Assembly (NCBI GenBank): GCA_964016885.1
Contig: OZ024740.1
Span: 70,618,001 to 70,682,000, forward strand
DNA length: 64,000 bases
Origin: Eledone cirrhosa
Lineage: Eukaryota
Direction: 5' to 3'
Of the stretch, positions 1,435 through 52,863 are shown one piece after another. The translations under genes and the position numbers were made by a program. The notes beneath the pieces were generated by a model. That model searched no databases and was not told where the DNA came from. It was given only the letters and a program-made list of their open reading frames with translations. The stretch's first letter is position 1, and each line of letters opens with the position of its first letter.

Positions 1435-1687
1435 ATGTATGTATATATATATATATATATAGAAACTTAATGACAAGGAATGGTATGCCATCCGGAACCT
1501 GTTTATAGAATTCTGTCTGCCCTTGTTACTCTAAAAACATAAATAAATAAAATAAACTATAGCTTTGTAGAATTAGCTTTTAATGAATTCCCTTTTCTAT
1601 CAACCAATGACCTGCACCCATCCCACCCCCCACCCTCTCCTACCACTTGTAGAGACCTATAAATACCATATTTATTTTTTGATACCC

Positions 1688-1738
1688 AGATTCCTGATGA
1701 TTTCTAATGAATGAAACAGTTCTAGTCCTGTAGAATCT
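1688..1738 (+). ncRNA. Type I hammerhead ribozyme
   Basis: Stem I AGATTC/GAATCT, core CTGATGA, short stem II TTC-TAAT-GAA, GAAA, stem III CAG-ttctagtc-CTG, cleavage triplet GUA. Confidence 0.75.
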
Positions 1739-1750
1739 CATCTATATTAA

Positions 1751-1786
<36 letters not shown>

Positions 1787-2219: not shown

Positions 2220-2636
2220 TGGGGATTCTTTTCTTTGTTTTTGTGCCTCTCCTTTGTTCAGTCCTACGCCATCATGTTTTTGTGTGTGTTGAGTTTACAC
2301 CAACACCATCAACACCGATGTAAGAAGATTACAACTCACCAAAAAGCAAGCAGATAGGCTAAAACGAACACTAATTCTAAACATAAAAAAGAAGATTTAC
2401 AGAGAATTAAGTCATCACGAAAAACATAAGCGTAACCTAATACAAGAAATAACTAAGATCACCACACCAAGAGAAAAATTAATATTTATAAACCTTATAT
2501 GCCTTGAAGAAAAGTACATTGTTCAAGAATGTGACAAGCACTTTAACAAGAAACTAAAGTGGCTTAAACAGATAAAACTAAATCAAGATACTTTAGGTAT
2601 CCCGATAGATATCCCGACAAAATTGATGGTATAAAT

Positions 2637-5600
2637 ATGGCCAACATCTCATTAACAGATGAATTCAACAACAACAACACAAAAATATACGGCAACACTA
2701 CAGTCGACTCTGGTGAATTATCGATATTACAGCTACCACCTAAATATGCCACATATAATAAGGTAAATATGATAAAATGCTTGTCAGAAATAGAAAAATC
2801 ATTTACAAAATTACGTTGGAGCCTCAAAAACAAAAACAAAAACAAAAGTAACAACATACGCACACACACACACATATACAACACACATCCCAGCAACAGA
2901 CACACAGACACAAACAATTATAACAACAACACACACATCAACATCAACAATAATAACATACTCAGAAACAACAACAACAGACACGCAGACATAAACAACA
3001 ATAACAACACACACAACAATAATAACATACACAGAGACAACAACAACACACATCAATAACAGCACACATCAACAACAACAACAACAACACACACACATTC
3101 TATGCCTCTCACCACCATCACAATCTTAACAAACACACAGACACAGAAAACAGGTAATGACAGTAACACAGAAATAAGGGAAGGTAATAGGATTGAAAGG
3201 AGAGGGAGACTATGAATACTGACAGAGAAAATAACCAGGACGAACACACAGACACACAAAATAGAGTAGATAATAACAATGAGCCAGAGGAAAGAGACAG
3301 GAGTAATAATAAGAGACATAGAAACAACCATGAGGCTGTTGGTGGAAATAGAAATAGAAACAACACAACTAACAATAACAGTAGCATTAGTACACATAAA
3401 GCAGCAGCCTGGAACTCTACTTTTTATAATCCTTCCGATATGTCCTTCCACCTACGACGAGTCCACGCCACGATTTTAGCTTTTAACAAACGCACGCAAT
3501 TGCCGTCGAAGGTCGATGAACAAACAGAAGCACAATTTAGTATAGCTAGATCTAAACTTAGAAATATTGTAGAACAGTATAGCAAGAAGCAAAATAGAAT
3601 GGAGGCCCAGCAACTGGGAGAAAAATCTGCAAATGGCTTGCGTAAGCTCATGCAGCGCTCGCGTAATGGAGAGATAGCCTGCTTTCCAACAGACAAGTCT
3701 GGCAGAATATCGGTTGACAGTCTGCCAAACTACATCCAGGCAATGCAACCCCACATCACTAACACAAGAGAAGTAACACCACAAGAGCATGAGGATAGGG
3801 AAAAAGCCCTCAATGCCCATACGATGATGTGGACGAATATAATGCAGCCCAACAAGAGGACTGCCAACAACCTCCAGGCCTGGAACAATGACGTGCCGGC
3901 GTTGTATGGGCTTCGAAAAGACCATAAAACGGGCAGTGACCCTGTCACTGGACCACCGACACGGCCAGTCTGTGGAGCTAACATTGCTAGTAACTACAGA
4001 CTTTCCTACTTCCTCTCCCTGATCATACGCCCCATCATTGAAATGTCCCCAGATATATGTGACAGCACGGAGGACCTCCTCAGCGGAATCGGCGAGATGA
4101 AACCGATCTAGGGACCTAACAAATTGCATAATAGGTAGTATGGATGTTGTGTCCCTGTATCCATCTATTGACGTGGATATTGCTGTGGAGAAATGCGTAG
4201 AAATGATCAGTGAGAGCAATATTGAATTCCGTGGGATTGATACCAGTGAGCTGGGACTCCTACTTAAACTTACCTATAGTAATGATTATCTAGATACATA
4301 TGGCCTTAGCAACCTGTGCCCTACAAGACCAGCAAGAGGCAGACCACCTACCATTACCTCAATGGCCAATAAAACCCACACAGATAGATGGAACGGGTGA
4401 ACCAGAGCCATACGGCTCCCGATAACCACGATTAACTAAAGAAAATGATTGCACATGCGGTGGGGGCCAGTATAAAATGAACCCTTAAGGAACATATGTT
4501 AAAATTTAATGGAAAAACATATGCCCAAGAGGAGGGAGCAGCCATTGGTGTTAGCATTGCAGGTGACATAGCTAACCTATTCATGGTATGGTGGGACAAT
4601 AGACTTAAACTTAAACTTAAAGAACAATTAGAAGACAGCAACCCCTTAATCCTGATAATGTACTCCCGCTACGTTGATGATATAAACATCGTAGTAAAAA
4701 CACCCCCACTAAAGAACAGTCTGGAATTAGAGAAAAACACCATGGAAAGCATCCAGCAAATAGCTAACTCCATCCACCAGGGTATTAGAGTTACTATAGA
4801 CTACCCAAGTAAACACCCCAACCATCGATTACTTGTACTAGACACAGAGCTCTGGTTAGATACCATTAAGAACAAAAAACAAATCCTCCATTCCCATTAT
4901 GCCAAACCCATGGCTTCCAAATATCTGATCCACCGAAACTCAGCTGTTTCGGACCATACCAAAATCAACATACTGATTGCGGATTTGGTACGGGTGATAA
5001 GAAACGTGTCCCGCATGTGCAACCCCAAAGAACTAGAGAGACACATACAACACTTCATCCACCGTATGCAGTTCTCTGGTTACAATCAGAGAGATAAAAT
5101 CAGAGTATATAGAGGAGCCAGGACCAAATGGGAAAAAATGGTAAATAATTATACAAATGGGACCTGCCCCTTGTATAGCAGCAAATTTTGGAGTAGAATA
5201 GAAAGAACTTGGAATAAGGTTAATAGAATAAACTCATGGTATGATAGCAATAAATACCAGAGTGTAATGTTCATCAATACAACTCCTAGAGGTGAATTAG
5301 CTTACAAATTTAGAAGGGCCCTAGATAAATATAAACTCAATATTAAGATAGTAGAAAGACCAGGTACCTCCATAAAAACACTTATTAGCAATACATACCC
5401 TTTTCAAAGACCTGCCAGTATAGATAAGAAATGTATAATCTGTAAATTAAGCCCCCATATTAACTGTAAAACTAGAAATGTAGTATATAGCATAAGATGT
5501 ACTGAAGGACAATGTAGAGATAAGAATATAGTGTACATAGGTGAGACAGCTCGTAGTATAGGGGAACGGATAAATGAACACTGGCGAGAGCTTCAAGATA

Positions 5601-5851
5601 GTAAAGAATCATCTGTACTCCACCAACATGCTAAAATAGAACATAAGCGTAAATTAGAGAACATAGAAATAAAAATAGAATCTACACACAGAAAAGACGC
5701 AATGTTTAGACAAATCACAGAGGCAATAAACATAAATGAACTCCAACCAAAATTAAATAGAAAACATGAATGTAACAGCAACATCACAACTTACAATTAT
5801 GGACAAAATGAAACACACAAACACATAGAACAAACAACCAGTAACATGTAA
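2637..5851 (+). pseudogene. PLE polyprotein (N-terminal domain, reverse transcriptase, GIY-YIG endonuclease) with frameshifts and stops
   Basis: Motifs LPPKYA..KLRW, TDKSG, KDHK, RPVC, MDVVSLYPS, Naiad/Chlamys-type insertion LCPTR..GRPPTIT..RW, GAAIG, RYVDD, CIIC linker and VVYSIRC..YIGETARSIGERINEH..EA..LN. Frameshifts near 4097 and 4430; TGA at 4098, 4398 and 4478. Confidence 0.9.
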
Positions 5852-5974
5852 ATAAACAAATAAATAAACAAATATAAACACACACAGACACCCGGATGTA
5901 ACACACACACACACACACAAAAACAAGATGGCGTAGGACAGAACAAAGGAGAGGCACAAAGAAAAGAATCCCCA

Positions 5975-6017
5975 GTCACTGAAGAGGTCACAGAATGTGT
6001 GACGAAAGAACTTTGAC
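5975..6017 (+). ncRNA. Minimal type I hammerhead in the PLE 3' pLTR
   Basis: GTCA-CTGAAGA-g-GTCACA(gaatg)TGTGAC-GAAA-G-AA-C-TT-TGAC. Stem III is vestigial, as in PLE minimal HHRs. Confidence 0.6.
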
Positions 6018-6229
6018 AATACATGAACAATCATCTGGTTGTGGAACCAACCAACCAACCGGAAATTTATAAATTCCTAAATTTATAAATTTAATTTATA
6101 ATAAATTGATGTGAAAGCAACTGGTGCGTGTGTTTCTTATTGGCAACATGACCCTTCCAAAGTATAACAATATCGGTTTCAACACAGGTTTTCAGAAAAA
6201 GAATCTTGCTAAACAAATTCAGAAACGAA

Positions 6230-6288
<59 letters not shown>

Positions 6289-12982: not shown

Positions 12983-15326
12983 TCATCATCATCATCACCG
13001 TTTTACGTCCGTTCTTCCACGCTAGCATGGGTTAGACGGGTTGTCCTGTTGTGGGCAGTGTCTGGTCGGCTGACCATGCCTTGCTCATACAGGAACTGAT
13101 CTGGCTTGATTTCTACAGCTGGATGCCCTTCCTAACACCAACCTCATTTACAGTGAGTGCTGGGTGCTTTTTCGTGGCGCCTACACGTCCACTTTACAGT
13201 GTGGGCTGGGTGCTTTTTTGCCGTGGCACCTCCACGGCCACCTTGCGGTGGGGGGGGGCATATTGTTTATATGCTTCAGCATGTACCCATGGGAGGTCGG
13301 GTACCCTGTATTACTGCGTGACGCCAGAAGTCACGGTCGTGTGTCATTGACTTTGAGAGGTGTAGTTGGGTAAGGTCGGCTTTTATCACCTCATCCCAAG
13401 TCATCTTGGGTCTCCCCACTCCGCGGTTTCCATCAACTTCTAGTGCTCTGCACCTTTTTATGCAGCTGTCATCCTTCATACGCATCACATGTCCATACCA
13501 GCGTAACCGCCTCTCCTGCACGCAGCATTTGATTCCTCTTATGCTCAGTCTCTCTCTCAATTCCTTTATGCTTTGTCGTTCACGTATATTACTGTTACAC
13601 ATCCATCGGAGCATGCAGGCTTCGTTTCTCTCTAATCTACGTAAGTCTTCCACCTTCAGCGCCCAGGTCTCACTACCATGCAACATCGCTGTTCGGATAC
13701 ACGCATCATACAGTCTGCCTTTCATTCTGAGGGAGAAGCCTTTTGCAGCTAGCAGTGGTAGTAGTTCCCTAAACTTCTTCCATCCCGTTCTTACCCTAGT
13801 TATTGTACTTTCTGAGCACCCACCTCCGTTGCTAATTCGGTCACCTAGGTAGCAGAAGCTGTCTACTGTTTCTACAGGGCTCTCCCAGAGATTGGTGGTA
13901 CTTGTTTCCTGTGGCTGTTTGCTTGCTGTTTCAGCACAGCTGCTGCATGTGAATCCTACATTCTTAATTAAGCTTCCTGAGATCCCGCTACATCTCTTGT
14001 GTACCCATTGTTTGCATTTGGGGCAGAGAATGGAGTTCCTACCTACACCTTTCCTACATACTGAGCAAGGCCATTTCCCTGAGGGGATCTGGGTTCTGTT
14101 TTCTCGTCTACTTACAAGGACCTTAGTCTTTGTCATGTTGACTTTGAGGCCCTTTCTCTCTAGTCCCTGCTTCCAGGTTTGGAATTTATTCTCTAGTTCT
14201 ACCATAGATTCAGCTATGAGTGCGAGGTCATCAGCATACAGGAGTTCCCATGGGCATCCGGTCTTAAACTCCTCCGTTATTGCCTGCAGGACTATGATGA
14301 ACAGGAGAGGGCTAAGAACAGAGCCCTGGTGGACCCCAACCTGTACGCTAAATTCCTCGCTATACTCATTGCCAATCCTAACTTTGCTGACTGCTCCCCT
14401 ATACATGGCTTGTACCGCTTTCACAAGCCATTCATCTACTCCTAGTTTTCTAAGAGCCCACCAGATTACTGCACGTGGAACTCTGTCAAAGGCTTTCTCA
14501 AGGTCGACAAATGCCAAGTAGAGTGGCTTACTTTTAGCTAGGTACTTTTCCTGTAATTGCCTCACAAGGAAGAGGGCATCAGTGGTGCCTTTCCCTGGTA
14601 CAAACCCAAATTGCATCTCGTCTATATTCACCCGGTCCCTAATCAGCTGTGCTATAACTCTTTCTGTTACTTTCATGACCTGGTCCATCAACTTTATACC
14701 TCTATAGTTTCCTCTATCTAGTGCATCGCCTTTACCTTTGTAGCAGTTGACAATGATGCTACTGCACCAATCTTTTGGTATGGCCCCCTCTAGTATTACC
14801 TGGTTAACGATACGTGTGGTTATAGTGTGACCTACAGACCCAGATGCCTTCAGCATCTCGGCAGCTATACCCGATGGACCGGTTGCCTTCCCTATCTTCA
14901 TATCTCTGATTGCCTTACTTACTACGCTGCCGCTGACTTGTACTGCTGGTCCCTCTATAGGGTCTACGTGGGGTAGGGTCTCTTCTTCCCATGCATTCTC
15001 CTCATTTAGTAATCTATCATAATGACTCTTCCATGCATCTTTCTTCTCAGCACTTGTGAGGGCAAGCTCACCTTTATCATTCCGGATACACTTCTCTCCA
15101 ATGACATCACAACTATCTCTGACACACTGCCTCGCAATCTTGAATACCTCCTGTTTCTGGTCCTCACGTTGTAAAACATGCTTGAATTTTCTATCCTCTG
15201 CTTCCCTCCTAGCTAAGTATACTTGTCGCCTAGCTTCCCTCTTGGTCTCTATGTAATGTACCCTGCTCCCCCCGTTCTTCCATTCTTTCCATGCCTGTCT
15301 CTTGGCCTTGACTGCTTCATCTACCT
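12981..15326 (-). mobile_element. 5'-truncated RTE-clade LINE, young, inserted in (TA)n
   Basis: Uninterrupted RT frame, about 290-nt 3' UTR, (GAT)n tail at 12981-12997. No APE domain present. Confidence 0.9.
13276..15326 (-). CDS. RTE ORF2 C-terminal portion: RT with an embedded PHD-like Cys/His finger
   Basis: KGKGD..NYRGI, QFGF, DLEKAFD, GVHQGSVLSP, YADD, CSVC..CPKCKQWVHKRC..CSSC, FCYLG, RRLRWYGH. The start given in the ORF track (15351) lies outside the element. Confidence 0.9.
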
Positions 15327-15339
15327 TATATATATATAA

Positions 15340-16995
15340 GTAGTTCCACAACAGTTAGTTCACCATTACCGAGAACAATTGTTTCACCTCATTCGGACGA
15401 TCAGCTCGGTTTAAATGAGGTCGTATGGAAAAGGAAAAACAACTGTACGAATACGCATGTGCTGAAACAGTCAATTCCTGAAGGGGAGGTAAACCCACGA
15501 TCGATCGATGTAAGGGGAGATAACTGTGGATATATTATTTATGTTATTCAGTCCAGAATATTATAGATTGTTCATGTTAGTCAATCTGGAGGTTTGTAAT
15601 TACGTAATAGGTGTTTCCAGACGTGTGGACAACGGGAAAATAGTTAATTCCTTGAACTTAGACAAGCACTATTATGTAACTTCTCGGGATATTGATTCTT
15701 TCTCCCATGCACAGCCCACATGACGGATTACCATTTCCGTATGGCTTAGACTTAGTAATAAGTTTCCATTGGATGGCATAATTCACGCCTGTGTCCTTGA
15801 GGGACCATACGTGGCTCGCGATCTTCGTGGACGATCGTTTGTCCGGGTATCTGAGGTCGACTGATGATTCCGGAAGCGTTCCTTAAACCGGCCCTCCGTC
15901 ATACCTACATAGGATTTAACCTCTTGTTGTTGATTTGGTCGGTTAGAAGTGACCACAGCTTCGTAAATTTACAGCGGATGTGTTACTTTGTTGTTGAAGG
16001 GGACAAACCTCAGGCCTTCGGGGCAAAAGCATCCTGGTGGGGTGCTGCTCTTAGGGCTGTTGGTGATGTTGGCCTTTATATTCTTAGCACAGGAGTATCC
16101 TAGTTTCATCCTGTGTCTGTTAAAGATGGAACGGTATTTGTGACCTATGGGGAAGTGTCTATCTAAGAGAGCTAAAAATCTTTTGCCAACATTAGTTTTA
16201 ACGTTGAGTTAGAGGTGGGTGGAGAAGCAAATTATTGTTCTATTAACACGATTTCTTTTCCTATTGTTTTTGGCGTTAGTGGGGGAGCAAGTAATTGGTT
16301 GCGAGAAGCCACTGTTAACTAACGCCGCGTTGTAGTAGGGTGCTGCTCTGTCAAAGATTGTTTTATCAGAGGAGAGGTTAGAGATTCTAGTGCCGATATT
16401 TTTCACGAAGTTTCTAAAAACTGTATGAGGGTGGTATGAGTCCTTATGCATGTAATTTAGTTTTTCATTTAGTTTATTACATCTAAAAATGTGTGTGGGA
16501 AGATCTAAATTTATATCTAAGTAATCTATGCTAACAATGTTGGTAGCTACTGTTATCCTCAGTCCTAACTCATTAAAAGTAGTCATTAAATCTTTTTTTA
16601 AATGGTCCACGTTGTGACCACTTTTATGGCTCTATAGGGTCAGACCATCATCGTGGTGTAAGCCCGTGTTTAAGTCCGGGTATAAGTCCGTGTATAAGTC
16701 CGGGAATCTAGTATCTAAAATAAATAAGCCAACCAAGTCGCATACATCAGCACTATCAAATGAGCCCATTGATACGTCGAATAGTTCTGAAGTAGTTGAC
16801 TTCTTTGTCCACACTACTCCAGTGTCGAAGAGGAGGGTTTTCCAGCAATGTGCAATGATCCTGACTAAATCATGGACGGCGGTGTAAGTGGTAGCAAAGT
16901 CCAGCGCTTTTTTGAACAGGGTCACTGAGATCGACGGGTAAAAATCCACAATATCGAATTGAATGATCTTCGTTCTTTTGGAGCTGAAAGAGTTA
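15340..16995 (-). mobile_element. Decayed 5'-truncated PLE of the YRDD type (Nematis-like by inference) with RT and GIY-YIG
   Basis: FDIVDFYPSI, FDVSMGSFDSADVCDLVGL, GLHHDDGL, IDYLDINLDL, then IYEAVV..SYVGMTEGRFKERFRNH..SHVWSLKD..KPY..CGLC at about 15700-15970. Confidence 0.8.
15368..15410 (-). ncRNA. Degenerate type I hammerhead in the PLE 3' pLTR
   Basis: Stem I ACCGAG/CTCGGT, altered core CTGATCG, GAAA, palindromic CAATTG, TT. Confidence 0.45.
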
Positions 16996-37399: not shown

Positions 37400-40390
37400 A
37401 GAGTATTGAAGTTTGCTTGAAGCATTGTGGAACAATAAGTAAATATCTTTAAGTCGTTTGGAAGCCTCGACAATGCAAATGGCTAAATCTCCGGGTAACA
37501 AGGTCCGGTGGTGGAGAGAGAGATGTAAGTGGGTGTACGTTGAGATGCGTGGTGTGTATAAGAAGTGTGAGATGTGTAGAATGAAGGGAAGAGTATAAAG
37601 GATAAAATAAAAATAACAACACAAGAGAGAGTTACCTTGGGAGAGATTTAATAGTCCCTATATATTTCGGATTCACATCCATCAACTGGGGTTTTTTCCG
37701 GGGTGGGGGAAAAGGTTGTCTGTCGGACAAGTCCGGAACGCGTCCTTCACTGTTTGTTGTTTTGAATATCTGAGGTATTCGGCAGAGCGCGCGTGCGCGT
37801 GTAATGGGGTCGGTCGTACAGAGGTCAGCGGCCGAATGAGGGAGTGGGATGGCGCTAGCTGTCAGTCCATTCTCTGCCTGTTTGTTAAATGTTACTGTGT
37901 GTGTGTGTGCGTGTGTTGTTGTCTCGCTTGAGTGTGTGTGTGTGCGTGTGTTGTTGCCTTGTTCCTCTGTATTGGCAGTGTAGTATGTTGGTATGGTGGA
38001 ATGCTACTGTGTGTGTGTGCGTGTGTGTGTGTAGTTGTCTCGTTTGCGTGTGTGTGTGTGTGCGTGTGTTGTGTGTTGTTGTATCGCTTGTTAACTTAAA
38101 CCAGCCATCTCATTTCGCTTCTCTCTGATCGGTTGTTTATTTGCGGTTGCAGTCGTTTGATAAAAAGCGCTTCCTTGATACGTAACGTGCCGACGTTTCT
38201 TTCAGTCGCTAGAATTGTGACAATGGGCCTTCCGTCTTTGTTTCCGCATTTGTCTATGTGTTTCCGGAAAGACGAGGCCCTGTTTTTAATGTGTTCCTTG
38301 ATCCGGATGTGCAAAGGTCGAATTGTGCTACCTATGTAGTATTGGTTGCACCTGTCACATTCTATCTTATACACGACGTATGTGCGTAGGCAACAGTTCG
38401 CATGGCGTATCGAGCAGTCTCTGAGGGAGCATGCGTCAGTAGATTTTTCGGGTTTCCTGGAGAGGCATCTTCGCAGGGAGGGGCCCGAGTGGGCCAGGTG
38501 GATGTCGAGGCCCTCCCTCCGTATAGCCTTGCGGATAGCGTTGGTGGTTTTCTCGCCCAGGTGTGGCATTTTAAGGAAGCACTTGCCTTGGGTGCTTCTC
38601 TGTCTCTTGCGTCTGGTGTCTCCTATTCTGTCTGTGATCGAGGTAGGGTACCCATCGTCTCCAGCACCTCGAGGAATCGCTTGGTATGAGTGACACCACT
38701 CGCGGGATCGCTGCATCTGTTTTTCATTCGCGCGATCTCGTTCGTGATGTATCCTCTTTTGGCACTGTTAGGGAGGGCGGACTTGTAGTGAACGAATAGG
38801 TCCCTGCAGGCTGCCTTTCGGTAGAAGTTGCAGTGGATCCTTCCCTGTTCCGTGATGTTGATTCGGAAGTCGAGGAGGGCAAGTCACCCGTCTTCGTTGG
38901 GGTGTTCAACACTGAAGTTAATGTTCTCGTCCGTGTTGTTGAACGTCTCATAGATTCTGTTCGCCGTGTCTTGGGAAGATGTGAGGATGAGGATATCGTC
39001 CACGTACCTTGAGAAAAAGGCTACGGCGTTGGGGTGGCAGGCGTTGAGTGCCTTGCGTTCGAGGTTGTCCATGTAAGAGATCGCTAGCACACCTGATAGG
39101 CTTGATCCCATGGGCAATCCCGAGGTTTGTTGGTATATTTGGTCAAGGAATCCGAAGTAGGTGTTGTCGACGACGATGGATAGGAGTTGGTGGATGTCAG
39201 TGGTGGTGAGCCCGAAGCAGTGTAGGTCGGTGGATTGGACGCGTTCCATTAGTATATTGACGGCCGGGACCGAGGTGTAGAGAGCGACTACATCAAGGCT
39301 GAAGGCATATCTGTTATTCCTTCTGGTGTCGGGATCCATTTGATGCAGGCGCTTCAACACCTCCTCGGAGCTGTTAACGTGTCCCGGCAAGGTGTCTAAG
39401 ATGGGTTTGAGTATTCTGGCTAGGAGCCATGACATTTTGTAGAGTGGTCCCTCCACGCTCGATACGATGGGCCTGATTTTCAGGTCGGGTCCCTGTTTGT
39501 GTGTTTTCACGAGGTGGTAGAAGGCGGGTAGTCTGCTGTTCCTCGTGAGGAGGTTGTATCTCAGCTTCTTCGGGAGCTTCCGCCGGTCGCAGATGTTGGT
39601 CCAGGCGGAGTTGATGTGTTCTTCTATCTGCGCGGGAGTGATTCCCGTGACCTTGGAGTAGAGGTTGTCATCGTCAAGGTGTTGGAGGGCCAGGGTGTTG
39701 TAGGCCTCTCTGCTGATGACGCAGAATTCTTTTCCCTTGTCGGAGGGGAGATAGATGAGGTTCTTCGATTTTAGGTTGGAGAGAGTGGTGAGTTGAGATT
39801 TGGTGAGTTTATGTGTTGTGCGTGTGTGTGTGTGTGTTTGTGAAGTATATCCGAGATGGAGTGTTTTAGCCTGAAGTGTTTAGTGTCGAGTTCGTGGTTG
39901 GTGGGTGGGGGGTGGAGTGGGTTGTCGGGGTGGTAAGTGGGGAACTTGGGGGGGGTTGCGTCGGCGCTGTTATTTTCTGTGGCGCTGTTGATGGCGGTCA
40001 CCCATTTAAGTTGGTAAGCGGCTCGACAAAAGTTGGCCTCGATGTTGAGTTTGAGTCTGTCGTCGAGACGTAGTGTGACGGTGAACTTAGGTCCGAGGTG
40101 TAGGAGTTTCAGCTCGTCACTCGTGAGAGTGCCGGTTAGGTCGGTGACCAGGTGCGTCGCATCGTTGAGGTATGGCTCGGTGTTGGTGGTTGCGGCGGTG
40201 GCGGTTGTTAAGTTGTTGTTTTCTACGTGGTTCTGGTCCGTCTGTTCGTTAGTGTCGATGTTCTCGTTGTGGCGTTTCGACAAGATCCACTCATATTTCC
40301 GCTTGAGCCGTTTTTTCTCGTATTGGACTCTGGAGTGGTAGCACTGGTCGATTGCTTTAGTGATTTTCAGGAGCAAATCTCCGGGTGCTA
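37400..40390 (-). mobile_element. Penelope-like retroelement (RT plus GIY-YIG), frameshifted, 5'-truncated at (TA)n
   Basis: LHLGPKF, PSDKG, KTHK, RPIVS, DVVALYTSVP, GLPMGSSLSG, RYVDD, VVYKIECDRC..YIGSTIRPLHIRIKEH..KEA..IN. Frameshifts near 39830, 38880 and 38720. Degenerate HHR at 37656-37691. Confidence 0.9.
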
Positions 40391-40397
40391 TATATAT

Positions 40398-40816
40398 ATA
40401 AGAATAAAGGAACAAAGAGTCAATGTTGCAGCATAACATATTTAATAACATATTACATGTTTCACTGTCGATCAGCTCGAGGAACGATCTATCATTGATC
40501 GAACCTGACTCTGGAATCTAAAGATCCTCAGATATGCCTCAGTATGTAATCTCGTCTCAGATTTTGTGACTCAAAATCCGAGACGAGATTACATACTGAG
40601 ACATATCTGAGGATCTTTAGATTCCAGAGTCAGGTTCGATCAATGATAGATCGTTCCTCGAGCTGATCGACAGTGAAACATATGTAATATGTTATTAAAT
40701 ATGTTATGCTGCAACATTGACTCTTTGTTCCTTTATTCTTATACTATTATACCTTGCTCTGCACGGCATCGAGTGCTCACCCGGCATACCGCCTACGGAC
40801 GCAATTTTCTTGCAAC
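40398..40816 (+). mobile_element. HHR-bearing non-coding module with about 170-bp snap-back arms
   Basis: 40398-40566 is the reverse complement of 40572-40743; unique 3' tail to 40816, then (TA)n. Confidence 0.8.
40601..40692 (+). ncRNA. Type I hammerhead with 61-nt stem II domain
   Basis: ACATAT-CTGAGGA-[61 nt]-GAAA-CATATG-TA-ATATGT. The base of stem II pairs poorly. Confidence 0.6.
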
Positions 40817-50467: not shown

Positions 50468-50878
50468 GAGAGAGAGAGAGAGAGAGAGACAGAGTGAGAA
50501 TAAACGCCATACACCATGTTAACTATCTTACAGCACTGATCACTAGTTGCTTAGTATGATCATAGTACCAAAGACGTTAATTCGGTCAACAAGGACATTT
50601 TTGTCAGTCGTCTTACCAATAAACTGTTGGTAGGATATCTTTAATGAAGTCTTCTCTCTATCTCTTTAACTGACACCTATACGCTCCGTTTAGTCTAGAT
50701 CTAAAAGTCTGTATGACTTACAGGATGCTGGCTGTTGAAACATAAGGGGTGTATATTTGTAAAGATCAATAGATGGGCGGAAGTAATTAGTTATCATCAG
50801 TATTTAGTTATTTCTGAAATATCTTCTCAGACACACAGATACAAACTGAATTGATGCGGTAACAACTGGTGAATACCT

Positions 50879-50973
<95 letters not shown>

Positions 50974-50977
<4 letters not shown>

Positions 50978-51713
50978 TATTTCCTCTCCCAAGGAGAGGA
51001 AATAGTGTATATATTTTATCAAATGATTCTATGGACATAATTTATGATATATTGCTCTGATTATTTAATTTATTAATTCTTCATTGAGCCACATCGTGAA
51101 CGGTTGCCACATATATATCTGTGACTTTGTGTATATGTAAATCTTTATATTTAATAATCTCCCATTAGGTTGAAATGCAATTTGGGCAATATTGGGCTGC
51201 GCTTTCTAGCAACCAGCCCACTCGCCGTAAGCAACTAATCACATTCTTTCTAACTTGACCACTGCCACGTCACGATTCTTAGCCATTTTTTAATCTATTT
51301 CTGGCGGAGATCGCTTTGGAAAATTAACTGTCCTATGAGTTTGTCTCCTGATGAGTTCGATACTCGAGATTTATCCTTAATAGGATATCTCAAAACGCGA
51401 ACGAAACCCGGGTAGGGACACAATCACGGTAAGAATGTACGCATTTCTTCTAACTTTAAATTTATACCTAATTGTTTATGGTTGACGGTATATTTAGTCG
51501 ATTTCTACATGCTGTTGAAATGTTGGGTAAATATTTTATTGCGGTCAGCCGTGAAGAGGCTGCTTTCGTTTATTTATCAAATATTTCTTCATAGGAGCCT
51601 TTATTCTTATAGCCTGGTTTAATTGATTTTTTATGTGGTAATTATGCTAATTGAGAGAGGAAATAGTGTATATATTTTATCAAATGATTCTATGGACATA
51701 ATTTATGATATAT
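50974..51713 (+). mobile_element. Retrozyme-like element: 661-nt unit plus 59-nt repeat, 5' hairpin, one HHR
   Basis: 50994-51052 repeats at 51655-51713. 5' snap-back ACACTATTTCCTCTCC-caa-GGAGAGGAAATAGTGT. Flanked by (TA)n. Confidence 0.7.
51342..51420 (+). ncRNA. Type I hammerhead with extended stem II
   Basis: TGTCTC-CTGATGA-GTTCG...CGAAC-GAAA-CCCGGG-TA-GGGACA. Confidence 0.85.
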
Positions 51714-51902
51714 ATATATATATATAAAAAACATCACGGGCGCTCTATCTCAAAATTATTTTTGAAAAGCATTAGAAATGCGCAACCGGTAAAACTTAAA
51801 ACCAAAACTGAATACTAACCAATACTATTACTAATTTTTACTTATTCCTTATTAAACTATTTTTCACTGGGAACAATTTGTCAGCATTTTCTTTTCCTTT
51901 TA

Positions 51903-52023
<121 letters not shown>

Positions 52024-52112
52024 ATATATATATATACTCTTTTACTCTTTTACCTGTTTCAGCCATCCGGCTGAGGCCATGCTGAGGCACCGCCCTTGAT
52101 ATATATATATAT

Positions 52113-52749
52113 ATTATATTATATTTTGAGAATAAACTCTCAGTCATTTACAATAATTAAGCTCCAGGAAGGGTCTCTTCCGAGCAGTTAATACATTTAA
52201 AGTGTACGATAAACACGAAATGTGTTTACATTGCAACAGACAAAGTTAGCCATTAATGAAATAAACTAATAAAAGTGAATACAATTTGTCTGTCTCGATA
52301 TAAGTCAATAAAGACAATATTATATTGGCAACAGCCATGATTCCTGGACATATTTAAATTTCAAAATTCAAACTTGTTCTGTAGACGAATTTGAACCTCG
52401 AAACCCAAATAAGTTTCGCAACGGTGGAATGTGAATTGAAAAATAAAGAGAATCGAAATGGGATAGAAATAAAAGAGTGAAATACCCAAATCTTCTGTGC
52501 TTATCAACAGGAATCCAGTAAGATTAGTTTATCACACATCAAAAATTTTGCAGGACTGACTACACGTGGGTAGGCAGGCCAAAACTAGCTATCCCACATT
52601 CACGGTGCTAGAAATAACAGCCGCTTATGCAGGATTAAGGATCAGCTCATACAATAAAGGAGCAATACATTATATTATATTTTGAGAATAAACTCTCAGT
52701 CATTTACAATAATTAAGCTCCAGGAAGGGTCTCTTCCGAGCAGTTAATA
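52113..52749. mobile_element. Non-coding element with 81-bp direct terminal repeats (556-nt period) in (TA)n
   Basis: 52113-52193 repeats at 52669-52749. Confidence 0.65.
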
Positions 52750-52753
52750 TATA

Positions 52754-52863
<110 letters not shown>

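Follow-up and report, generated by a model that had tools for sequence, protein, structure and literature searches.

The stretch at 51 kb of the window analysed here (64,000 nucleotides of Eledone cirrhosa, OZ024740.1, positions 70,618,001 to 70,682,000) comprises 1.09 units of a non-coding hammerhead repeat, 661 nt in length and dispersed through the genome, which is almost certainly a non-autonomous element of the Penelope type. The account that best explains the evidence as a whole, and which is held with moderate confidence, is that of a Penelope-type passenger, likely served by a Hydra-type helper and likely copied from a circular RNA template. The class of element, its size range and its link with Penelope elements are already known from publications. 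To this the family adds evidence, from sequence, that the two repeats of an insertion, and likewise its two arms, trace to one unit, together with the finding that the unit has the paired hairpins that a young, intact Hydra-type element also has. A literature search of mostly open-access sources, Repbase excluded, returned no paper that deals with this family, with units sharing alleles or with the paired hairpins.

The copy contains exact direct repeats of 59 nt (50994-51052 and 51655-51713) with a spacing of 661, as recorded in the initial annotation of this locus, and its remark that there is no long ORF is equally sound: the longest stop-to-stop frame within the element has 68 codons, and the longer frames listed extend through the flanking TA repeat. 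Since the unit sequence resumes upstream of one complete unit, the 59-bp repeat is simply the extent of the overshoot past one unit; the extra base, G at 50993, agrees with the family, while its counterpart in the downstream unit (51654) is A. The inverted arm at the 5' junction had been described as a 5' hairpin, which is real and yet peculiar to this insertion rather than a general feature. It stops at an internal TA-like stretch, at neither of the main end sites, and bases 1-28 of the query, at this junction, match this locus alone in the genome search. Both the 59-bp repeat and the 5' hairpin are accidents of this insertion. Having only one hammerhead, the copy cannot release a unit-length monomer; with that single hammerhead and a damaged hairpin 2, it is likely to be a dead end, an ordinary truncated copy. 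The features of the locus are collected in Table 1; unit positions (c) are window positions minus 50993.

Table 1. Features of the element and its left flank, in window coordinates
Feature	Position	Strand	Remark
(TA)n microsatellite, left side of the target	50878..50970	.	most sister copies also lie in (TA)n
Inverted arm, 19 nt, at the 5' junction	50974..50992	-	reverse complement of family sequence near the repeat start
Upstream-unit piece, 5'-truncated (first 59-bp repeat plus one base)	50993..51052	+	
Full 661-nt unit, counted backwards from the fixed 3' end	51053..51713	+	
Bulged hairpin 1, directly past end site 1 in unit order	51054..51089	+	putative reverse-transcription start signal
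End site 2 ('tail' end), ~101 nt beyond site 1	51150..51156	+	almost exclusively one arm of two-armed insertions
Bulged hairpin 2, directly past end site 2	51157..51176	+	damaged here: A at 51174, family G
Promoter-like motifs: CCAAT-like box, AGCCAYTTTT, TATA-like stretch	51236..51300	+	putative function
Type I hammerhead, long stem II, short self-complementary stem III	51342..51420	+	predicted cut 51414/51415
End site 1, fixed 3' end at 51713, blurred by TA microhomology, into (TA)n	51706..51725	+	

The 40 best matches in the 3.0-Gb assembly are 92-100% alike and spread over many contigs. An exact 16-mer adjoining the hammerhead occurs 77 times in the genome, against three times in a reversed control, and is carried by 25 of 51 aligned units of the subfamily to which this copy belongs (subfamily A). 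This implies about 150 or more hammerhead-bearing copies, a lower estimate that leaves out copies too short to contain the hammerhead. The 1430-5885 matches of a first look were rejected as a copy number, being candidates and not copies. A sister subfamily, B, has a unit of 690 nt that is 71% alike to that of A and in which the TATA-like stretch of the promoter-like region is more distinct; B copies are 96-99% alike. A third variant of the unit is present in L111, and the family is also present, and variable, in the contigs of three further sequence runs.

Insertions are dispersed single copies in (TA)n, in the form of partial tandems and head-to-head arms. Among 57 sampled insertions, picked for long matches (the samples overall favour long, young and query-like copies), 41 have their 3' end at exactly c59, the equivalent of 51713; one-armed insertions end at this site 1 in 44 of 50 cases in A and in 9 of 10 in B. 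The 5' end varies, insertion length ranges from 143 nt to 1.87 units and the length of the repeat changes from copy to copy. The permuted ends for which the initial annotation had proposed to look are therefore not what other copies have: their 3' end is fixed and the 5' end alone varies. Target-site duplications are not readable in (TA)n targets, as is likewise the case for microsatellite-targeted Penelope families (PMC8557442). In 65 insertions of A and 22 of B no arm attains two units, and a query of 1.87 units did not change this; no copy holds two complete units. Two cut sites are spanned by 7 of the 65 A insertions and 3 of the 22 in B, in addition to two further B copies; the total of 22 B insertions is low, because duplicate removal by identical 3' ends fused some distinct young copies (L181, L184, L202).

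More than one unit is present in 43 of the 57 sampled insertions, which run head-to-tail into the unit again and never into an ORF, and B copies longer than one unit likewise re-enter the unit upstream without an ORF. This agrees with the earlier identification of a retrozyme-type element; attachment of every copy to a reverse-transcriptase ORF, which had been named among the observations that would speak against it, is not seen, as the sequence upstream continues into the unit. It also bears on the suggestion that what looks like a unit is just the terminal repeat of a protein-coding Penelope family still to be discovered, its copies being truncated ends. Truncated ends of coding elements do look similar in this genome, and the comparison made here covered 50 GIY-YIG loci and one Hydra family. 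However, all 43 insertions of one unit or more re-enter the unit rather than an ORF, as do the B copies, and homology to the coding elements compared is confined to unit insertions in their TA tracts, such that this origin is very improbable.

The hammerhead consists of a stem I of 6 bp, the core CUGAUGA (51348-51354), a stem II of 5 bp with a long extension, GAAA, a short stem III and GUA. A hammerhead descriptor detects two motifs in the 64-kb window, against one in 20 shuffles together; Rfam gave no hammerhead match, either at the gathering score over the window or at E<=10 over 50900-51800. Core and stems can be parsed in 71 of 83 aligned units, the 12 unparsed rows being omitted from the pair counts. 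Of the pairs in stems I and II, 11 were scored, and each of them forms in 36-40 of the 40 A rows. In B, stem I is kept in 28-30 of 30 rows, with a change from G-C to A-U in 14 of 30, while stem II is kept in 13 of 30 through two-sided changes (G-C to U-A, U-A to C-G and G-C to U-A); the remaining 17 of 30 have an insertion, and in the scored register their pairing is poor. Both core and pairing are preserved between subfamilies that are 71% alike.

The hammerhead had been described as excellent. The type I motif is real, but this word overstates its quality, as stem III is 2 bp long in this copy and, by prediction, the active fold lies 5.0 kcal/mol above the free minimum, the range over three copies being 2.8-5.0 kcal/mol. 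The CCCGGG palindrome reported with it exists here but is a private variant, found in 1 of 40 parsed A rows, namely this copy; elsewhere in the family the palindrome takes CCCAGGG-like forms, and CCAUGG in 28 of 30 B rows. Across the family stem III is of 2-3 bp yet self-complementary, with a predicted duplex energy of -11 to -15 kcal/mol. Amphibian hammerheads of this build are reported to cut well as dimers only (PMC7229834), and by analogy the family hammerhead would probably cut as a dimer through its self-complementary stem III. The circular monomer is predicted to be modestly structured only (z -1.8).

The origin of the partial tandems was studied through positions present twice in one insertion, with 40 draws of mismatched pairs as the control. 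In the A tandems (37 insertions), minor-allele sites are concordant in 72 of 87 cases, against 16% in the control (maximum 30%), and 29 rare alleles are shared in 13 insertions, against 2.55 (maximum 10). The inverted arms of nine A insertions are concordant at 10 of 11 sites (control 31%) and share 4 rare alleles (control 0.42). Similar excesses characterise B, with 29 of 31 sites concordant in 12 tandems (29% in the control) and 8 rare alleles shared (1.73), and with 39 of 53 sites concordant in 10 insertions with inverted arms (22%) and 21 rare alleles shared (1.1), 13 of these 21 in L193. This implies that the tandem is rebuilt from one unit and not inherited as two, a one-unit origin that matches what reverse transcription around a circle, as proposed in the initial annotation, predicts. 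Shared alleles showed no bias towards A-to-G editing (6/55 against 35/401, p 0.61), and no parent-daughter pair usable for locating the breakpoint of the template was found.

Gene conversion among neighbouring repeats could likewise share alleles, and would suit a DNA-level duplication, a satellite or a solo-LTR-like element in which the hammerhead is incidental. Such an origin is nevertheless barely credible: insertions are dispersed and single, their 3' ends are fixed, they are truncated at the 5' side and arranged in head-to-head arms, the repeat differs in length by copy and is hence no LTR, and inverted arms share alleles too.

The predicted cut site is crossed without a gap in all 83 aligned rows, 20 of the 22 copies that reach it in a 3'-anchored sample go past it, and (TA)n lies within 14 nt upstream in 2 of 77 exact motif matches. 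An accumulation of 5' ends at the cut site was dismissed: small samples showed it weakly, and the 77-match motif count did not show it. Taken together, the single unit of origin, the seamless junction and the conservation of the ribozyme would, on this sequence evidence, most simply suggest a ligated circle, a reading that is reasonably likely; a ligated-circle template has been proposed for non-LTR retrozymes (PMC7229834). A cut but unligated linear monomer, with the enzyme, once at the 5' end, jumping to the 3' end of that monomer or of a different one, is improbable. It would account for the copies whose start coincides with the cut site or is no more than 5 nt away from it (2 of 22 3'-anchored copies, and two more at the second pass), but the TA of the cut triplet provides microhomology to the target that could explain those few starts, no indel marks the junction in any of 83 rows and a start there is seen in only 2 of 77 motif matches.

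Strand transfer on linear RNA is also compatible with the allele sharing. The same element and helper could use an uncut linear transcript of a partial tandem as template, the enzyme re-annealing, once at the 5' end, to redundant sequence of that RNA or of a sister one, while the hammerhead acts at another stage or rides along. Naiads are reported to form the same partial tandems without canonical hammerheads (PMC8557442), and the anole element to insert in vitro without cutting (PMC11167929). It would also fit this reading that no arm reaches two units, the longest copies stopping at unit positions 148-172, and that four long A copies start at unit positions 325-338, directly upstream of the hammerhead, where transcription could start. 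In six copies, however, the upstream unit is covered well beyond 325-338; units inherited linearly from a two-unit source would be free to drift apart, yet both carry the same subfamily and rare alleles; and the hammerhead core and pairing have been kept across 29% divergence. Moreover, Penelope reverse transcriptases are not known to have RNase H, and its absence would make strand transfer harder. In view of these points, a linear transcript is the rather unlikely, if still sizeable, alternative to the ligated circle.

Insertions with two arms reveal a second end site. From the 27 listed, 6 with arms under 40 nt, including this copy, and 7 more with a compound arm or an end off both sites were dropped. 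In 13 of the 14 clean insertions that remain, one arm ends at site 1 and the other at site 2; in the other one both arms end at site 2. Site 2 (c155-166) is 101 nt from site 1 in A and 127 nt in B, and terminates 2 of 60 one-armed insertions. A hairpin comes within a few bases after each end site, its lower stem being of 4 bp and its 3' bulge of 2 nt, and these hairpins are kept in A, in B and in the third variant, with a chance expectation of 0.02 per shuffled unit; the lower stem and TT bulge of hairpin 1 are intact in 55 of 61 matches. Penelope elements are known to bear a tail on one inverted arm (PMC3846280, PMC8557442), and two start sites have been demonstrated in vitro for the anole element (PMC11167929). 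Twin priming on one RNA, for which arms from site 1 should halt near site 2, may be hinted at in B; the B insertions compared had, however, been picked for this very span, and the pattern is absent in A.

Penelope elements abound in the genome, and a helper could be drawn from them. No sequence homology was detected between the unit and 50 GIY-YIG loci, save independent unit insertions in their TA tracts, or between the unit and the one Hydra-type family examined. The promoter-like motif is found in 63 of 83 units and in 20 of 27 3' regions of three Neptune-type families, and occurs four times in the window, on both strands. Neptune or Poseidon were downgraded as helpers, since they have neither homology to the unit nor a hairpin pair at their own ends, none being found in 20 long Neptune/Poseidon-type loci. 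In four Neptune-type 3' regions (L091, L092, L103, L110), the GAAA-palindrome-UH half of a hammerhead is kept and the first half is altered or missing.

A young Hydra-type family has an intact open frame of 821 codons and many copies that are 98-100% alike (L260-L286). The frame, which Pfam did not recognise, has the DKT and CxCX5C motifs given for the Hydra clade (PMC8557442, section 11) and resembles the Hydra-1_Obim rows, an assignment made on motifs by eye. The order of this element is a long-stem-II hammerhead with a palindromic stem III, an end, a hairpin, ~90 nt, an end, a hairpin and the ORF. Both hairpins are present in 15 of 30 Hydra-type loci, the rest having one or none and being likely 5'-truncated. 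Judged from these shared sequence features, the helper is probably a Hydra-type Penelope protein acting in trans. The tandem period of the Hydra-type family is near 3.9 kb, which exceeds the under-3-kb Hydras described.

The copying cycle would begin with the transcription of rare copies of 1.7-1.9 units that have a promoter-like region and two hammerheads, the likely source copies being L008, L010 and L020 in A and L184, L200 and L202 in B. Both hammerheads are predicted to cut, probably as a dimer via stem III, and a host ligase to close the 661-nt monomer; circular RNA from tandem hammerheads and its ligation by RtcB have been shown in other animals (PMC7229834). A 661-nt circle joined at 51414/51415, as envisaged in the initial annotation, would need two-hammerhead sister copies as its source. 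The shared hairpins and (TA)n target suggest that a Hydra-type protein then nicks (TA)n and begins copying directly before hairpin 1, on a template that is fairly likely to be a unit-length circular RNA. Copying crosses the cut site and the unit boundary seamlessly and halts at scattered points, which gives insertions of 0.2-1.9 units. The second broken DNA end may prime before hairpin 2, and the arms do come one from site 1 and one from site 2. The present copy would represent one round plus 60 bases, with a 19-nt fold-back. It can be proposed, as a tentative reading that falls short of being the expected one, that insertions record a Hydra-type dimer on one ribozyme-made circle, priming both ends of the (TA)n break at hairpin-marked sites. 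Several points count against the account as a whole: no arm is of two units or more, the active fold lies above the free minimum, 17 of 30 B rows pair poorly in stem II, the circular monomer is modestly structured, the unit has no homology to the Hydra element examined, the promoter-like motif is shared with Neptune-type families, one two-armed insertion has both arms at site 2 and the arm of this copy is at neither site.

In the literature available, the origin of tandem copies and the enzyme responsible have so far been proposed rather than demonstrated. The family defines a concrete test, in terms of protein, RNA and target, of rolling-circle reverse transcription by a telomerase-related enzyme. 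Were the reading of a dimer on a circle true, it would name the helper of an animal retrozyme, and one rolling-circle mechanism, which could be rebuilt in vitro with an intact protein of this genome, would explain the pseudo-LTRs, inverted arms and one-sided tail of Penelope elements.

The metazoan non-LTR retrozymes, described with their circles by Cervera and de la Pena (2020; PMC7229834), resemble the unit in having no ORF, no true LTR and one type I hammerhead per head-to-tail unit, and also in low GC (35%), coexistence with Penelope elements and length. The initial annotation took 661 nt to be longer than typical, but this length is unexceptional; published retrozymes, for which an origin from Penelope elements is given, span 51-972 bp, with an average of 650 in fish (Li, Clavereau and Pollet, bioRxiv 10.64898/2026.07.22.740005). 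The short palindromic stem III is like that of the amphibian motifs that work as dimers (PMC7229834), and 8 of 9 frog retrozyme dimers stayed uncut in vitro (10.64898/2026.07.22.740005). By contrast, the unit occurs in dispersed partial tandems of less than two units and not in arrays, has a long stem II and is strictly targeted to (TA)n, and its two end sites with hairpins and its two-armed insertions have no counterpart in the retrozyme descriptions consulted. Of the features that define a retrozyme, a type I hammerhead per unit, a lack of ORF and true LTR, and a tandem with two hammerheads are all found, the last in the family and not in this copy. The plant LTR retrozyme, with a type III hammerhead in true LTRs, was ruled out, as the 59-bp repeats are free of ribozyme and the hammerhead is of type I.

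A fixed 3' end, 5' truncation, a partial tandem, an inverted 5' arm and a one-sided tail place the unit with Penelope-like elements. Endonuclease-positive members share with it 5' truncation, partial tandems that mimic LTRs and an inverted 5' arm (PMC8557442, PMC3846280, PMC11167929), as well as a tail on one arm, two start sites and AT-rich targets. The unit, by contrast, has no protein, and its tail is ~101 nt (127 in the sister subfamily) against the 30-40 described. Between its ends and the target there is TA microhomology, whereas in the anole element the start site is non-homologous to the cut DNA and no reads ended at the cut site (PMC11167929). With the Hydra clade it has in common the (TA)n target and a canonical hammerhead (PMC8557442), and with the Hydra-type element of this genome the order of hammerhead, two ends and two bulged hairpins. 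It differs in its lack of an ORF, in the absence of homology with the one family compared and in the distance from cut site to 3' end, 299 nt against about 50. Autonomous members encode a reverse transcriptase, a CxCX5C linker as well as a GIY-YIG at the C terminus in one ORF; the unit has no ORF and is at most a likely passenger. Non-autonomous Chlamys elements such as MRC1 are similarly non-coding, of Penelope type, with pseudo-LTRs and head-to-tail insertions (PMC8557442), but are described there as resembling their autonomous partner at the 3' end and as mostly without hammerheads.

Several other elements were observed around the copy. Directly behind it, a Neptune-type Penelope 3' fragment (51742-51903, plus strand; by-eye match to L069 and L103) ends in (TA)n, and 91-nt direct repeats lie 556 apart beside TA tracts (52109-52199 and 52665-52755), possibly as another partial-tandem element. 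A second intact hammerhead, with a long stem II and palindromic stem III, is found in another short TA-flanked element (57633-57585, minus strand), and two related degenerate hammerhead-like motifs occur in TA-flanked repeats (49470-49426 and 53202-53158, minus strand). At about 1465-1755 (plus strand) a very young hammerhead element (99% alike) has its 3' end, which contains a bulged hairpin and two end sites separated by 70 nt; the body of the element is very long and microsatellite-rich, with no ORF in 9 extended loci. By eye, 51005-51043 resembles the reverse complement of that 3' end, as if an antisense piece had been captured. The window also contains a broken Penelope-like coding element (2300-6230, plus strand) of an abundant family with protein copies 89-94% alike; near 5980 this element has a minimal hammerhead-like motif, and upstream it has an inverted arm. 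Also present are Poseidon-like Penelope ORF fragments (38096-40517, minus strand) and a 692-codon reverse-transcriptase frame of a LINE-like element (13276-15354, minus strand), both recognised by eye. Elsewhere in the genome, ~1960-2700 nt past the GIY-YIG match of L092, a non-coding hammerhead repeat with a 459-nt unit forms a 1.9-unit partial tandem that runs into (TA)n.
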